64,000 nucleotides of DNA from sequence record MN709127.1; one strand, written 5' to 3'. The translations under genes and the position numbers were made by a program. The notes beneath the pieces were generated by a model. That model saw nothing but the letters and a program-made list of their open reading frames with translations. It had not been told where the DNA came from and ran no database searches. Within the stretch, counting starts at the first letter, position 1, and each line of letters starts with the position of its first letter. Source of the DNA: Escherichia phage Ec_Makalu_002. Below, piece after piece: positions 1-7,606 of this stretch.

Positions 1-263
1 TCGGTAAAGAAACGACGCTCACCCGACCAAAACCACACACCAGAACAACCAATAGGGGATTCTTTTAACGTCATAGAGTCGAAATTACTACCAATAATAG
101 TAATTTCTCTAACATCACCATCATCGTCAAGGTCTTCTACCCTAAACGGGCGACCAGCCAACAAGTCAACAATACATCTGTTAATAGACGACGAAAATTT
201 AGTCAGTTCGGCTTTCGACGCTTCGCATTCAATCTTGTAAGTTTTACCAACTTCCCATTCCAT
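1..263 (-). CDS. hypothetical protein, N-terminal fragment (gene continues beyond window start)
   Basis: Minus-strand ATG near 263 preceded by GAGGTGA-like RBS overlapping nrdG stop; frame stays open to window edge (MEWEVGKTYKIECEAS...). Not in ORF track because truncated. Confidence 0.35.
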   Translation of the reverse strand, partial: MEWEVGKTYKIECEASKAELTKFSSSINRCIVDLLAGRPFRVEDLDDDGDVREITIIGSNFDSMTLKESPIGCSGVWFWSGERRFFT

Positions 264-2205: not shown

Positions 2206-4068
2206 TTACATGTGCTTAACGCGGTTTACCATCTCGGAGTGTTTCCCGTGGTTAAATGGACGCAGATCAACAGATCCAAGATATCCACTAACGCGACGGA
2301 TGACATTCATCTTTTCCAGATTGTCATTGCCGCAATCAGGACAAACAAAACCAGACTCGGTCGCTCTCATTTCCTTAGTAGATCCGCATACATGACATAC
2401 ATCAGAAGGAGTATTAACACCGAAGTAGTGCAATTTATCCATTGCATAGTCTACTACAGTTTCAAGCCCTTTAATGTTGTTTTTCATGTCCGGGAACTCA
2501 ACATAAGAGATCATACCACCAGACGCCAGCCAGTGATAGTCTTTCTCAAAGTCGATTTTCTCAAACGGTGTAACTTTCCGGTCTACGTCAAGGTGGAATG
2601 AGTTGGTGTACCAATCTTTATCGGTAGCACCCTTAACAATACCAAATTGCTCTCGGTCCAGTCGATTAAATCGATAACAAAGGCTCTCGGCTGGCGTGCC
2701 GTAAAGACTAAACCCAAGTCCGGTTTCGTCCTTCCATTTTTCAGTATAATGACGCAGGATTTTAAGAATATGTTTACCGTATCGCTGCGCATCTTCCGAA
2801 TCAAACGGATGAACACCAAACAGGACGCTCAACACTTCATGTAAACCAATATACCCAAGAGAGATACTAGCGCGACCATCTTTCAGCACTTCCAAAATTT
2901 CATCGTTTTGATGAATACGGAAAAATGCACCTTCTGTATACAGCACCGGAGCAACATTGGCTTTAGCCCCTTTTAAAGCGTCTACGCGACTCATGAGCGC
3001 ATCAAAGCAAATAGGCAGACGATTAGCTAGCTCTTGTTCGAATAGCTCAATTCTGCGCATTACAGACGCTTTACCAGCACGACGCGCGGCAATAAGTGCA
3101 ATACGCGGAAGATTCAGAGTCACAACACCTAAGTTATTACGTCCGTCTAATACTTCTTCGCCTTTCTCATTATGCCACACACCCAGGAAGCTACGACAAC
3201 CCATCGGGCTAACCGGAACACTAGATCCAGTGATACTACGGTTATTCTTCGCAGAGATATAATCAGGGTAAAGACGCTTACTAGAACATTCCAATGCAAG
3301 TTGCTTAATATCGTAGTTCGGATCTTCCGGTTTAAGGTTTAATCCTTCTTCTAAGAACATCACCAGCTTAGGAAACACCGGAGTTATACCATCTTTACCT
3401 AAACCTTTAGTTCGAACTTTCAGGATCGCTTTCTGAATCAGTTTTTCTTCCCAGCTAGTACCCATACCAAAGGTTAAAGTCACAAAAGGTGTTTGACCGT
3501 TGGTAGAGAACAAAGTGTTGATCTCATATTCCAACGCCTGATATCCGTCTAGTGTTTCTTTTTCTGTCTTCTCTTGTGCATAGAGAGTATTAGCTTTGAT
3601 TCCGTAGGTTTCGGCATCAGCAAGATGTTTATGATATGTTTTCTTAACATACGGTGCTAACACCTGATCGATGTTTGCTATGGTAGTTCCGCCATATTGA
3701 TGACTTGCCACCTGTGCGATAATTTGAGCTGTTACAGCACATGCAACACCGATCGATTTAGGACTTTCGATTTGTGCGCTACCCAATTTAAAACCATTCT
3801 CTAACATGTCTTTGAGATTAACAAGACAGCAGTTAGTAAACGGCATAGCGGGTGCATAATCCATATCATGATAATGAATATCACCGTCTACATGCGCTTT
3901 ATAGATGTGCTCAGGTAACACGGTTTTAGCAATCTGTTTAGACACAGCACCAGCAATCAGATCTCGACGTGTCGGGAATGTTCGCGCGTCTTTGTTCGCG
4001 TTCTCTTTGCTTACTTCGTTTTCTTTACCCGTTGCGATCTCTGTAATGTCTTTGATTAGTTTTTCCAT
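2206..4068 (-). CDS. nrdD: anaerobic ribonucleoside-triphosphate reductase (glycyl radical enzyme), uninterrupted
   Basis: 620 aa; C-terminal CPDCG zinc motif and RVSGYLG glycyl-radical motif; single ORF, so no intron. Confidence 0.95.
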   Translation of the reverse strand: MEKLIKDITEIATGKENEVSKENANKDARTFPTRRDLIAGAVSKQIAKTVLPEHIYKAHVDGDIHYHDMDYAPAMPFTNCCLVNLKDMLENGFKLGSAQIESPKSIGVACAVTAQIIAQVASHQYGGTTIANIDQVLAPYVKKTYHKHLADAETYGIKANTLYAQEKTEKETLDGYQALEYEINTLFSTNGQTPFVTLTFGMGTSWEEKLIQKAILKVRTKGLGKDGITPVFPKLVMFLEEGLNLKPEDPNYDIKQLALECSSKRLYPDYISAKNNRSITGSSVPVSPMGCRSFLGVWHNEKGEEVLDGRNNLGVVTLNLPRIALIAARRAGKASVMRRIELFEQELANRLPICFDALMSRVDALKGAKANVAPVLYTEGAFFRIHQNDEILEVLKDGRASISLGYIGLHEVLSVLFGVHPFDSEDAQRYGKHILKILRHYTEKWKDETGLGFSLYGTPAESLCYRFNRLDREQFGIVKGATDKDWYTNSFHLDVDRKVTPFEKIDFEKDYHWLASGGMISYVEFPDMKNNIKGLETVVDYAMDKLHYFGVNTPSDVCHVCGSTKEMRATESGFVCPDCGNDNLEKMNVIRRVSGYLGSVDLRPFNHGKHSEMVNRVKHM

Positions 4069-4077
4069 TGTATCACC

Positions 4078-4104
4078 TATGAAAAAGCGGGATTTTCTCC
4101 CGCT
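4078..4104 (-). terminator. hairpin terminator/attenuator upstream of nrdD
   Basis: Stem-loop gcggga-gaaaa-tcccgc followed by T-run on the minus strand. Confidence 0.4.
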
Positions 4105-4113
4105 CGTTGATAG

Positions 4114-4608
4114 TTATTTTACCAGTTCTGCTAATTCTTTTTCTTTAGCTTCCAGTTCAGCCTTAAGCTGTTTAATCTCTTGTCGCTTCTTATTAGCGGC
4201 TTCCTGCTTACTATTTCGGATAATCTGATCTAGATACAACTCCCAATCCTGAATATTTTTGATAATATAACCGTCAACATTAATTGGTTGGATATTTAGT
4301 ACAGCTTCCAGTTTAGTCGCAAAAACTTTAATTGCTGGGGTGAAGTATTCATATTCGTTATCTTCAAACCAATAACCTAGACTTGCATTATCAATACGAA
4401 GACGAAGTTCAAGATCAAGGTCTTTATCTTCGGTGTATAGGTCTTTTACACCCCCCATCGAACCAACAACAACTTTAAAACGAATTTTATCAACACCACC
4501 AAACACATCAGTAAGGATACCAGCAATTGAACTATTAGCGCAAGATTGGTCGCTGAATGCGTCAAGGTTTTCTTTAGTTACAGTATACCAAACATCTTGT
4601 ACCCACAT
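4114..4608 (-). CDS. hypothetical protein with C-terminal coiled coil
   Basis: 164 aa; C-terminus KKRQEIKQLKAELEAKEKELAELVK. Confidence 0.5.
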   Translation of the reverse strand: MWVQDVWYTVTKENLDAFSDQSCANSSIAGILTDVFGGVDKIRFKVVVGSMGGVKDLYTEDKDLDLELRLRIDNASLGYWFEDNEYEYFTPAIKVFATKLEAVLNIQPINVDGYIIKNIQDWELYLDQIIRNSKQEAANKKRQEIKQLKAELEAKEKELAELVK

Positions 4609-4662
4609 AATATAATCCTCTCGTTGTTAAGTGGGAGTATTATAGCATACTCCCTTCGCATG

Positions 4663-5841
4663 TCAAGCACGAACTTTTTTCTTTACTGCTTTCACCTTCT
4701 GGCGAATTGCTCGAATCGCTTCGATCTCTTTTTCAGTCTCTTTAACAATTTCTTTGCGATTCTGAATATCTGTATCGAGATTATCATCAAGTTTAGGCAG
4801 CACGTCAATCAAGAACTTTTTAAAGTCTTTCAGGTTTCGGATAACCGCACCTTCACCCATTACCGCCACCCCTACACCATCCGGCAGATCACCAAACAGC
4901 TTAACCAGTTCAGATAGATGATCATGATCCTCTAGTGCTTCTTCCGGTTCAGATGGCAGTTCAACAAAGTTATAACGTTCATCATTGCTGATCAGATGAT
5001 ACCAGCAAAGCCCGAAAGATTTAGGAGTATATTCTACACCATCAACTTCAACCGCGTCAACACTTCCGAAAGGATCTACTTTAGTTACCTTAAATCCATG
5101 TTCCAGCTTTTGAACAATTTCAATAACATGGCTGGATACGGTTTCAGTGTTAAACCAATGAGGCAAATTATGCTGATTTGGCTTGTAGCGTTCGCCTACT
5201 TTAAATCGCTGACCTTCCGCTTGCATAGAATGAAATTGATGGTTGGTGATTTCCGCGAAGTATTCAAATTCGCCACCGTCAAACACACAAGCCCATTGAT
5301 CACAAAAACGATCTGCCTTAACGGTTTCACCTTTCGCGGTGATCATGGTAGCTGATCCGTGCAATTCTTCTTCAACCAAAAAGCCATATTCGACAAAATC
5401 AGCAAGTTTCATGGCTTCTTTGTGTTCTGGGTCATGCTCTCCCCAGAATCGCTTAAATTCTTGCAAACCTTCTGGGGTAAACGAATAACATTTACCTTTT
5501 TCAAAGTAAGTCGGCATTGCATCCTCTTTCTTGTTCATCGCTTCGTATGCCTCTTTTGAGATACGTTTAAAGTATTTGCGCTCATTGTGCATAATCATAG
5601 TAGACCAATAATAAACGATATCCTCAGCGGAATAAACTACATCTCCAGCTTCAATAGTAATAACATGACCGTGGTCATCTTTTTCTAATACTTTAAAGCC
5701 CTTTTCTACGATTTCAGCAACTCGAATATGACCACGGCGCGAAGCATCGGTCAGAATAATTGAATAGCGAGAAAAGTCTAGAAACTCATCTTTACCGCCT
5801 TCACGGAATGCATAGTAATGACCTTCAAAGAATTTAGCCAT
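4663..5841 (-). CDS. hypothetical protein, member of a tandem paralog family (two copies of the repeat domain)
   Basis: 392 aa; shares NGFKVL..VD..G and NERKYFKRI(S/T)K motifs with the ORFs at 5898-6482 and 6491-6811. Confidence 0.55.
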   Translation of the reverse strand: MAKFFEGHYYAFREGGKDEFLDFSRYSIILTDASRRGHIRVAEIVEKGFKVLEKDDHGHVITIEAGDVVYSAEDIVYYWSTMIMHNERKYFKRISKEAYEAMNKKEDAMPTYFEKGKCYSFTPEGLQEFKRFWGEHDPEHKEAMKLADFVEYGFLVEEELHGSATMITAKGETVKADRFCDQWACVFDGGEFEYFAEITNHQFHSMQAEGQRFKVGERYKPNQHNLPHWFNTETVSSHVIEIVQKLEHGFKVTKVDPFGSVDAVEVDGVEYTPKSFGLCWYHLISNDERYNFVELPSEPEEALEDHDHLSELVKLFGDLPDGVGVAVMGEGAVIRNLKDFKKFLIDVLPKLDDNLDTDIQNRKEIVKETEKEIEAIRAIRQKVKAVKKKVRA

Positions 5842-5897
5842 AATATAATCCTCTCGTTGTTTAGATGGGAGTATCTTACTACTCCCGTTTCATCATG

Positions 5898-6482
5898 TCA
5901 AGCGTTAAATGACTTTTTAATCTCTTTCAGTTCTTCCACTTTCTCGGCGCTGAATTTAGCGTAGGTATCATGTCGAATAATTTCACTTTCAAGAAAGGTT
6001 TCCAGTCGAGATCTATTTTCAATAAGGAACTCTTTCAGGTCTTCCGCGTTCTTGACAAAGATTTTATTGTCGGTAATGTCATCTTCAATCGCAAAGGAGA
6101 TAGAGCGAACTTTACCAAACAAGTTAATCAGATCTTCCAGAGATTCTTCTTTCTTAACTGGCTTCATTTCTTCAAACTGCTTTTTAGTGATGCGTTTAAA
6201 GTATTTGCGCTCGTTTGCAGCAATCAGAACAGATGCACCTTCATACCCATGAGTTTCTACCAGATACACACGCCCCATCGCATCAACAGTGAGAACTTTA
6301 AAGCCGTTACAAAGCACGTCATACAAGAACTTATTATGTTGCGGACATCGTTTGATAAATTCTGCGGCTGTTTCTGCACTACGGAAAGTGTAATAACGAC
6401 CTCGTTCAAAAACAGCATCATTTGAAGACTTAGCCGGATACAATTTATACGTTTTCTGTACCATAATATAATCCTCTATCAT
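5898..6482 (-). CDS. hypothetical protein, paralog family member
   Basis: 194 aa; CNGFKVLTVDAMGRVY and ANERKYFKRITKKQFEEM shared with neighbours; likely true start is the second Met. Confidence 0.55.
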   Translation of the reverse strand: MIEDYIMVQKTYKLYPAKSSNDAVFERGRYYTFRSAETAAEFIKRCPQHNKFLYDVLCNGFKVLTVDAMGRVYLVETHGYEGASVLIAANERKYFKRITKKQFEEMKPVKKEESLEDLINLFGKVRSISFAIEDDITDNKIFVKNAEDLKEFLIENRSRLETFLESEIIRHDTYAKFSAEKVEELKEIKKSFNA

Positions 6483-6490
6483 TTCACTAA

Positions 6491-6811
6491 TTAAACAGCA
6501 CGGAACAGAATGCGCTCACACGGAAGCAGCATAAATTCCCAACGCGGGTCAAAGTCTTTAGCGGTGTATGTTTTCCCATCAACCGCTATTTCACTTACAT
6601 AACCAACAGGTGACACTTTAAGAACAGTAAACCCATTCTTGATGACTTCGTAGGTATCTTTCACCCCTTCGTATTCATCATCTAAGAAGTCTTTATGTGC
6701 TTGCTCAGATTTAAAAACATAGGCCACACCGGATTTAAACATCTTACGCATTGTTGATTCTCCTTCTTGATTAGATGGGAGTATTTTACTACTCCCATTT
6801 CTTATTGTCAA
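6491..6811 (-). CDS. hypothetical protein, paralog family member (true start probably MRKMF, near 6751)
   Basis: NGFTVLKVSPVGYV motif; the 5' extension in the ORF track overlaps a promoter palindrome. Confidence 0.5.
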   Translation of the reverse strand: MTIRNGSSKILPSNQEGESTMRKMFKSGVAYVFKSEQAHKDFLDDEYEGVKDTYEVIKNGFTVLKVSPVGYVSEIAVDGKTYTAKDFDPRWEFMLLPCERILFRAV

Positions 6812-6814
6812 CTA

Positions 6815-7303
6815 CTATCTTAATCTTTGTATGAATTGTTTCTTATACTTCTTCGTGATTTCTTCTCGTGTATCAGCGTCGCAGTAATCGAAACCTTCTG
6901 CGTCCATAATAGCAACCATCTCCGCGCGTGTCAAGCGTGAAAATCGTTTTACTTTATCAACAGCATATTGAGGATGTAAATGATTGTTGGTGTAGTCTCC
7001 TTTGATGTAATTAACATAGTTTGTAGCCCAAACTACGAAATCAGCACCTAAAGCACCAACACCAAACCGCTTAAAGTCTCCGGTCAACGATCCTTCTAGG
7101 CGGTTGCAACACGAATGAAGCAATCCCCTTACACGTCCTTGACCTTTACCATCTAGATCGTGGTCGTGGTCAAGATGGTTTTTGCTCATATCCTCAAAAA
7201 GTGGCAATTGACAAAGGGGGCAAATGCCCCCTTGTTTTTCGAATAGTTCTTGTTTGTACTCTTTAGCACTCTTAGCAGTCAGTAACATAAATTCACCCTC
7301 CAA
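6815..7303 (-). CDS. 49: endonuclease VII (Holliday junction resolvase)
   Basis: 162 aa; CPLCQ...HLDHDHDL...GRVRGLL..CN zinc/HNH-like core; close match to T4 gp49 as recalled. Confidence 0.85.
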   Translation of the reverse strand: MEGEFMLLTAKSAKEYKQELFEKQGGICPLCQLPLFEDMSKNHLDHDHDLDGKGQGRVRGLLHSCCNRLEGSLTGDFKRFGVGALGADFVVWATNYVNYIKGDYTNNHLHPQYAVDKVKRFSRLTRAEMVAIMDAEGFDYCDADTREEITKKYKKQFIQRLR

Positions 7304-7312
7304 AGAAGGTAT

Positions 7313-7606
7313 TTAACCATTAATCTTGTTTTTGACTACAAAGGATCGGAACTCATCAAAGCCACCGATATAATCACCATTATAGAAAATCTGCGGCATG
7401 GTGGCAATAACTTCTACCCCTGCGCGATCCTGAATATCGGCAATGATAGAATCAATCTTTACAGGGCGACCGTTTTCGTCCACACCATCATTAACAGGAA
7501 TATAGATGTAAGGGATCTTGCGCGATTCACAAAGGCGCTTTGCGTTCTGGCAATACTTACAGTTGTAACCTTCAAAACCAAAAATTTCTACCATGTTATA
7601 CCTCAA
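7313..7606 (-). CDS. nrdC: glutaredoxin/thioredoxin
   Basis: 97 aa; CKYC redox motif; MPQIFYNGDYIGGFDEF resembles T4 NrdC. Confidence 0.8.
   Translation of the reverse strand: MRYNMVEIFGFEGYNCKYCQNAKRLCESRKIPYIYIPVNDGVDENGRPVKIDSIIADIQDRAGVEVIATMPQIFYNGDYIGGFDEFRSFVVKNKING

Follow-up and report, generated by a model that had tools for sequence, protein, structure and literature searches.

Four genes of Escherichia phage Ec_Makalu_002 (sequence record MN709127.1), which lie one after another on the minus strand between gene 49 and nrdD, were analyzed within a 64,000-nucleotide (nt) stretch of DNA that is referred to here as the window. We call these genes p86, p188, p392, and p164. A megablast search with positions 4000 to 7400 returned 58 phage records, all of them Krischvirus (RB49-like T4-type coliphages, Straboviridae), with nucleotide identities of 99.4% to Shigella phage SSG23 and 95.4% to RB49. 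The gene order along the minus strand is dam, nrdC, gene 49 (the product of which is endonuclease VII; Pfam PF02945 and PF09124), p86, p188, p392, p164, and nrdD, and the four genes correspond, in this order, to RB49 ORF060, ORF059, ORF058, and ORF057. Their coordinates and those of the associated elements are collected in Table 1.

Paralogy and domain architecture of the array

A preliminary description of the locus, made without database searches, had recognized three consecutive minus-strand open reading frames (ORFs) between gene 49 and nrdD, called at positions 4663 to 5841 (392 amino acids [aa]), 5898 to 6482, and 6491 to 6811, and had regarded them as tandem paralogs. The three ORFs are indeed present and paralogous. 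Using BLASTP with composition-based statistics, p392 aligned with p188 at an E value of 6e-10 and with p86 at 5e-9, while p188 aligned with p86 at 5e-7. Along similar lines, Smith-Waterman alignments compared with 500 shuffles gave z values of 4.5 to 14.7 in 9 out of 10 domain pairs, and the tenth, formed by the second and third domains of p392 (D2 and D3), was connected via the first domain, D1 (z values of 12.6 and 11.1). A purely compositional resemblance, which had been named as the finding that would overturn the paralogy, is ruled out by these E values (6e-10 to 5e-7) and by the shuffle tests (z values of up to 14.7).

The 392-aa protein had been described as containing its domain twice. 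The internal repetition was confirmed, with three copies instead of two (aa 1 to 104, 105 to 208, and 209 to 298), as supported by three hidden Markov model (HMM) matches, three phrog_622 stretches, and three BLASTP segments. Similarly, the motifs NGFKVL and NERKYFKRI(S/T)K had been reported as shared by the three genes. The genes are similar, but the exact NERKYFKRI(S/T)K motif is found only in domain 1 of p392 and in p188, the other domain copies keeping only E-R/F-x-x-F of it. Across five diverged domain copies (called GoF-like in Table 1, for the reasons given below), 10 positions are invariant.

The next gene, p164, which lies outside the region described previously, is a fourth, divergent paralog. 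No pairwise similarity between p164 and the other domains was detectable (shuffle z of ca. 0), and its tail showed a weak resemblance to the other tails (z of 2.7 to 3.8). By profile comparison with hhalign, the p164 family aligned with the domain family over residues 1 to 92 (probability of 95%; E value of 3e-8), and a domain HMM built from 16 sequences without p164 matched it at an E value of 2e-6 among the 602 ORFs of the window. In addition, phrog_3710 was matched both by p164 (7e-4) and by GoF of phage T4 (8e-12). Together, these alignments and profile matches show an array of four consecutive paralogs (p86, p188, p392, and p164) with six domain copies, three of which are fused in p392.

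A related C-terminal module ending in a long helix is found in three of the four genes (p188, p392, and p164), in all of them behind an acidic or low-complexity linker, and p86 consists of the domain alone. The modules of p392 and p188 are homologous (shuffle z of 8.0). An AlphaFold2 model of the whole p392 protein, based on a 23-row alignment, had a predicted local distance difference test (pLDDT) score of 48.5 and was discarded as unusable.

Regarding the gene calls, a length of 194 aa had been given for the middle ORF. A start at ATG 6464, giving 188 aa, appears most likely, because 7 out of 8 examined annotated orthologs have 567 nt (188 aa) and because the string GAGGATTATATTATG found at this start recurs at the starts of p392 and p164. 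The remaining ortholog, in the E26 record, is annotated with 579 nt (192 aa). A GAGG ribosome-binding site precedes p188. The start of p86 is ATG 6751 (86 aa); the TTG at 6811 is part of the -35 hexamer of a promoter and not a start codon. In this phage, a CAA-to-TAA change at positions 6491 to 6493 cuts p86 from 90 to 86 aa, and in 8 other aligned Krischvirus genomes the protein has 90 aa and ends in ...AVQLVK.

PeSL cassettes and variation among Krischvirus genomes

Promoter-early stem-loops (PeSLs), known from phages RB49 and phi1 (Arbiol et al. 2010, PMC2839356; Comeau et al. 2014, PMC4122927), are defined as a consensus sigma-70 promoter combined with a stem-loop, a stem over the -10 box being one of five subclasses (PMC2839356). 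In their layout, the upstream stop codon stands beside the promoter, followed by a ribosome-binding site and a start codon (PMC2839356). There are ca. 50 PeSLs per genome, concentrated in plastic regions, and promoter and terminator activities have been measured for a few of them, the terminator measurement having been made for PeSL211/210 only (PMC2839356). A PeSL-associated gene listed there is nrdD; the main text of that paper does not discuss this locus.

Three such elements lie upstream of p86, p392, and p164. The sigma-70 hexamers of these PeSLs match the consensus at 11, 10, and 12 out of 12 positions, with spacers of 17, 17, and 16 nt, respectively, and stems of 7 to 9 bp overlap the -10 box. 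The RNA folds have energies of -13.8 to -15.6 kcal/mol (z of -2.9 to -3.7), with values of -13.8 kcal/mol and z of -3.6 for the p86 PeSL. Exactly three copies of the palindrome GGGAGTA-N6/8-TACTCCC are present in the 64 kb, versus none expected, and their stems are identical to each other and unique in the window. GEC-3S annotates the p86 PeSL, located just past the stop codon of gene 49, as a promoter, and G2248 lists it as a putative terminator; the p164 PeSL is an annotated promoter in GEC-3S. The PeSLs of p86 and p392 form a 78-nt direct repeat with 73% identity. In addition, the TGA stop codons of p188 (5898 to 5901) and p392 (4663 to 4666) sit inside the TTGACA -35 box of the next PeSL, where coding end and promoter overlap by design.

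Each of the three genes first recognized had been credited with its own promoter and palindrome. This holds for p86 and p392; p188 has neither, and the third palindrome serves p164 instead. The gap between p86 and p188 comprises 26 nt and is unstructured. Read from the sequence, the transcription units are p86 plus p188 (p188 being predicted to be co-transcribed with p86), p392, and p164, each headed by a PeSL, a near-consensus early promoter with its -10 box enclosed in a GC-rich stem of 7 bp. The array ends ahead of nrdD with a canonical terminator, annotated as such in GEC-3S and G2248. A scan for promoters with hairpins found about a dozen more PeSL-like elements on the window's minus strand. 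Two of them, at 20085 and 27762, are nearly copies of the array PeSLs, with an A-T pair of the stem replaced by G-C in a compensatory manner.

TABLE 1 Coordinates of the array genes, their domains, and associated elements in the window
Feature	Position(s) (nt)	Strand	Description
p86	6491..6751	-	Lone GoF-like domain, without C-terminal module; phrog_16115 at 7e-57, phrog_622 at 4e-7; BLASTP versus p392 at 5e-9
p188	5898..6464	-	GoF-like domain, aa ~13-104 (nt 6153-6428), plus C-terminal module, aa 105-188
p392	4663..5841	-	Three tandem GoF-like domains plus C-terminal module; phrog_8944 at 5e-209, phrog_622 at 4e-17 (3 stretches)
p392 domains 1, 2, and 3	5530-5841, 5218-5529, 4948-5217	-	HMM
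p392 C-terminal module	4666-4947	-	Long predicted helix; AlphaFold2 helices with pLDDT 74-86
p164	4114..4608	-	GoF-like N-terminal domain, aa 1-92, then C-terminal hairpin and long helix
PeSL upstream of p86	6771..6811	-	-35 TTGACA 6811-6806; -10 TAAAAT 6788-6783; stem 6796-6777
PeSL upstream of p392	5860..5901	-	-35 TTGACA 5901-5896; -10 TAAGAT 5878-5873; stem 5886-5867
PeSL upstream of p164	4630..4666	-	-35 TTGACA 4666-4661; -10 TATAAT 4644-4639; stem 4654-4633, 8-nt loop
Intrinsic terminator	4080..4105	-	8-bp GC-rich stem, then U5; fold -17.1 kcal/mol, z -4.2
GoF-family gene, N terminus (RB49p051 ortholog)	3..263	-	phrog_5347 at 6e-38, phrog_622 at 1e-8, HMM E value 1e-23
Further PeSL-like -35 boxes	990, 2160, 10036, 10713, 13025, 14198, 20085, 25246, 25949, 27762	-	Scan

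Presence and copy number of the genes in related phages, a comparison proposed in the preliminary description, proved nearly invariant, the array being intact in all 58 records except those of KFS-EC, which was deposited twice. KFS-EC (NC_055757) lacks exactly p86 and p188. When its junction (positions 2643 to 2705 of the segment compared) was compared with window positions 5842 to 5901 and 6752 to 6814, it was found to be a chimeric PeSL, composed of the gene-49 side of the p86 PeSL and of the hairpin-loop variant and 5' untranslated region of the p392 PeSL. Because the junction mixes parts of both PeSLs, the crossover is placed inside the PeSL. This junction shows that PeSLs are sites of recombination, the loss in KFS-EC being what the PeSL model predicts. 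Compared with the PeSLs of RB49 and phi1, those of the array show no essential difference. They share the phage group, the sigma-70 promoter with a stem over the -10 box, the stop codon in or next to the -35 box, the ribosome-binding site and start codon behind it, and the location in a plastic region upstream of unknown genes, and the KFS-EC deletion represents an additional natural PeSL-PeSL exchange.

An alignment of nine genomes revealed mosaic blocks within the genes. In p188, two haplotypes of the N-domain are found with two of the tail in each of the four possible combinations, joined at an invariant NERKYFKRITKKQFEEM...LINLF stretch; p392 has alternative blocks across D2 and D3; and the N-domain of p164 is highly divergent in JK32 and Whisky, with a conserved tail. 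This invariant joint between the p188 blocks is the NERKYFKRI(S/T)K stretch. At the DNA level, the region of this motif in domain 1 of p392 (5534 to 5586) has 77% identity to its counterpart in p188 (6163 to 6215), with a 20-nt exact match, despite only ca. 30% identity between the respective proteins; this patch may be the product of gene conversion or a hot spot of recombination. Several metagenomic Krischvirus contigs, all from one study (e.g., Logan SRR22356019, 48 kb, at 4001 to 4568 of the segment compared), have p188 split at the linker into ORFs of 97 aa (N-domain) and 89 aa (tail).

The ratio of nonsynonymous to synonymous substitution rates (dN/dS) was taken on orthologs from nine Krischvirus genomes, the paralogs being only 27 to 40% identical at the amino acid level with saturated synonymous sites. 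Values were 0.15 for p86, 0.23 for p188, 0.26 for p392, and 0.36 for p164, and per subdomain they ranged from 0.14 to 0.39. Thus, these are maintained coding genes under purifying selection and not under gene-wide diversifying selection. The earlier characterization of the genes as tandem paralogs in an early-transcribed plastic region stands, but the term "diversifying" is at odds with these dN/dS values (0.15 to 0.36) and with the near invariance of the array.

Relationship to the GoF/Frd.2 family

The proteins encoded by the array very probably belong to the GoF/Frd.2 family, carried here in PeSL cassettes. Kim et al. (2025; PMC12152347) grouped T4 GoF and Frd.2 together with MotB.1 as an "LSm-like fold" family of T4-like phages, in which, by their description, an N-terminal barrel, predicted to be five-stranded and "LSm-like" (SH3-like), is followed by a linker and a C-terminal domain that varies. 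The main text of that paper makes no mention of RB49, Krischvirus, tandem copies, or multidomain forms. In our analysis, phrog_622 matched T4 GoF (5e-38) and T4 Frd.2 (4e-46) as well as p392 (4e-17, in three stretches), p188 (2e-6), and p86 (4e-7). With hhalign, a profile of five window domains could be aligned to T4 GoF as well as to T4 Frd.2 across the entire domain (P of ca. 2e-4), and the five-domain HMM gave scores of 21.9 bits for T4 GoF and 11.9 bits for T4 Frd.2. For T4 MotB.1, hhalign gave no link to the window domains, and phrog_622 provided only a weak one (0.0013). Both p392 and p188 bear the RefSeq name "goF mRNA metabolism modulator," and p392 appears as "frd.2" in the original RB49 record. 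A Pfam scan at an E value of ≤1 assigned no family to p392, p188, p86, or p164. Word-indexed homolog searches returned only Krischvirus relatives. The exhaustive profile search gave 12 representatives at an E value of ≤0.001, two of which (P0033 and P0039) resemble unrelated repeat proteins, a yield that we attribute to the fast divergence of the family.

The family extends beyond these four genes. In RB49, a second array is located downstream of nrdG (NC_005066, 30297 to 32608) and comprises p051, p050, p049 (with two domains), and p048. The ortholog of p051 in the window starts at position 263, directly after nrdG, and the window edge leaves its first 87 residues. The two arrays flanking nrdD-nrdG amount to 8 genes and 11 domains in ca. 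9.5 kb. Another GoF-like domain (HMM E value of 1e-8), followed by a coiled-coil-like tail, was found in RB49 dc2 (211 aa; NC_005066, 11993 to 12628), beside the helicase gene 41. T4 GoF(D25Y) acts on gene 41 mRNA, and the adjacency of dc2 and gene 41 may or may not be meaningful. The Krischvirus total is therefore at least 9 genes and at least 12 domains, versus three dispersed single-domain genes in T4; the RB49 part of both totals comes from the genome outside ca. 96.3 to 114.1 kb. At the RB49 positions equivalent to those of T4 goF/motB.1 (39.2 to dexA) and frd.2 (frd to 32), no family member was found (NC_005066, 5128 to 5971 and 138437 to 141944), and in RB49 the family appears to have been effectively relocated to the nrdD-nrdG flanks. 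One additional candidate in the window, the ORF at 24120 to 24455 on the minus strand, had a weak HMM match (1.7e-4) and was rejected, as it matches only its own PHROG.

In common with T4 GoF (comC-alpha), Frd.2, and MotB.1, the Krischvirus proteins have an N-terminal domain of ca. 90 aa that is homologous by profile. They also share with them the succession of domain, acidic linker, and short C-terminal module, all being early nonstructural genes of T4-type phages. However, the T4 genes are three in number, each with a single domain and at a locus of its own, while Krischvirus has two tandem arrays plus dc2, including one three-domain and one two-domain protein, and its C-terminal modules are longer than those of T4 and end in a long predicted helix.

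Possible roles of the array

The locus as a whole is, in our opinion, best explained as a tandem array of GoF/Frd.2 early genes in PeSL cassettes whose products may act on RNA, an explanation that we consider reasonably probable. Host RNA polymerase would fire the three PeSL promoters right after infection, an early timing suggested by the sigma-70 consensus promoters and by the lack of any late-promoter motif in the array. Judging from other PeSLs that have been measured, the hairpins may damp read-through from the preceding unit. The proteins would then act post-transcriptionally on phage or host RNA, either by binding it or by interfering with the machinery of RNA decay or termination. We infer this step from the phenotype of the GoF(D25Y) mutant, which stabilizes a reporter RNA post-transcriptionally and independently of Hfq (PMC12152347); by analogy with this mutant, a mechanism at the RNA level is plausible for the array but tentative. 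As for the origin of the array, PeSL-bounded cassettes could have been duplicated and fused in frame.

To judge by the fused barrels and the helical tails, valency or oligomerization seems to matter. A more specific arrangement, in which p392 would be a covalent trimer of LSm-like barrels, two such proteins pairing through the long C-terminal helix to form an Hfq-like assembly of six barrels, seems improbable to us. The resemblance to Hfq and the Sm-LSm proteins is limited to the fold predicted in the literature for the T4 relatives, a five-stranded bent beta-sheet, and to the effect of GoF(D25Y) on RNA stability. In contrast to those proteins, no ring-forming oligomer has been predicted or shown, and, as noted above, the GoF(D25Y) effect does not depend on Hfq.

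Several results weigh against this explanation of the locus. Pfam FRD2 (PF03197), which matches T4 Frd.2 itself at 5e-39, was not matched by p392, p188, or p86 at an E value of ≤1. Because of this, we speak of family membership and not of orthology, and the old RB49 name "frd.2" is therefore no sign of the latter. Neither Pfam LSM nor Hfq was matched at the same threshold, and a profile search of PDB sequences gave no significant match, no solved structure being detectably related. In the published RNA assay, little effect was seen with wild-type GoF or MotB.1, RNA binding has been demonstrated for no family member, and SH3-like FeoA domains, which do not bind RNA, are among the nearest published structural neighbors (PMC12152347). 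Finally, the hairpins of the three PeSLs have no U-tract, and their putative terminator activity is assumed by analogy.

Alternatively, the barrels could be SH3-like protein-protein adaptors and not RNA binders, each paralog docking a different host protein (Rho, the degradosome, RNA polymerase, or a defense protein), with the expansion providing breadth of targets, anti-defense included. The goF mutations were selected on rho-mutant hosts (PMC12152347), the RNA reporter was unaffected by wild-type GoF, and the family has undergone expansion and shuffling within a hyperplastic region, with p164 N-domains that are very divergent between phages (dN of up to 0.52). On the other hand, no partner is known and the published pull-downs yielded no functional insight (PMC12152347), ortholog dN/dS values below 0.4 give no indication of gene-wide positive selection, and the copy number of the array is nearly invariant across the 58 records. 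The role in host interaction or anti-defense that had been suggested for the genes is unsupported, PADLOC or other anti-defense evidence having been neither sought nor found. A family link exists to T4 GoF/Frd.2 alone, and the only experimental lead on that family is the effect of the GoF mutant on mRNA stability (PMC12152347). We consider protein adaptors rather unlikely.

If PeSL-driven duplication merely yields drifting ORFs, the genes could be dispensable passengers, the array serving only to tune transcription into nrdD through its promoters and terminators. PeSLs are associated with nonessential ORFans (PMC2839356), KFS-EC is viable without p86 and p188, and the split of p188 into 97-aa and 89-aa ORFs in some metagenomic phages points in the same direction. 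However, all four genes and every domain are under purifying selection (dN/dS of 0.14 to 0.39), all frames are intact in 57 other records, and the five diverged domain copies retain their 10 invariant positions; moreover, a canonical terminator separates the array from nrdD. Drifting passengers are, in view of this, very unlikely. Another reading concerns the palindromes, which, as 7-bp inverted repeats centered on the -10 box of three promoters, could be operators for a dimeric DNA-binding repressor and not RNA or DNA hairpins. Yet two of the copies have a spacer of 6 nt and the third has one of 8 nt, and other PeSLs of the window change in sequence while keeping their pairing, with compensatory changes from A-T to G-C to T-A (GGGAGTA/TACTCCC, GGGGGTA/TACCCCC, GGGTGTAT/ATACACCC, and GCGGTTAT/ATAGCCGC). 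In Whisky, Phi1, and GEC-3S, an A-to-G change in the p86 stem keeps a G.U pair, and in published work PeSL hairpins blocked sequencing reactions and caused transcription to terminate (PMC2839356). Given the covarying stems, the change that keeps the G.U pair, and the difference in loop length, a hairpin is favored over a protein operator, which we rejected as extremely improbable.

The feature is thus real and mostly explained already by two published concepts, GoF-family proteins and PeSL cassettes. What the tandem GoF/Frd.2 array adds is modest but concrete, namely, a three-domain member, the previously unannotated members p86 and p164, the lineage-specific expansion flanking nrdD-nrdG, and a natural PeSL-bounded deletion, together with the shuffling of domain and tail blocks between phages. 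It is no new kind of system, but the locus provides a clean sequence-level case of PeSL-mediated cassette loss. Among the early genes of T4, GoF is one of those that have gone unexplained the longest, and its family was not recognized until 2025. With nine or more genes, fusions of two and of three domains, swapped N-domains and tails, and the cassette deletion of KFS-EC, the krischviruses constitute a natural comparison set, and these natural variants allow one to ask what the domain binds and what role its oligomeric state plays.

As a minor observation in the neighborhood of the array, GEC-3S (HE978309) carries a gene for an HNH homing endonuclease between nrdC and dam (4597 to 5352 of the segment compared), which is missing from both Ec_Makalu_002 and RB49.

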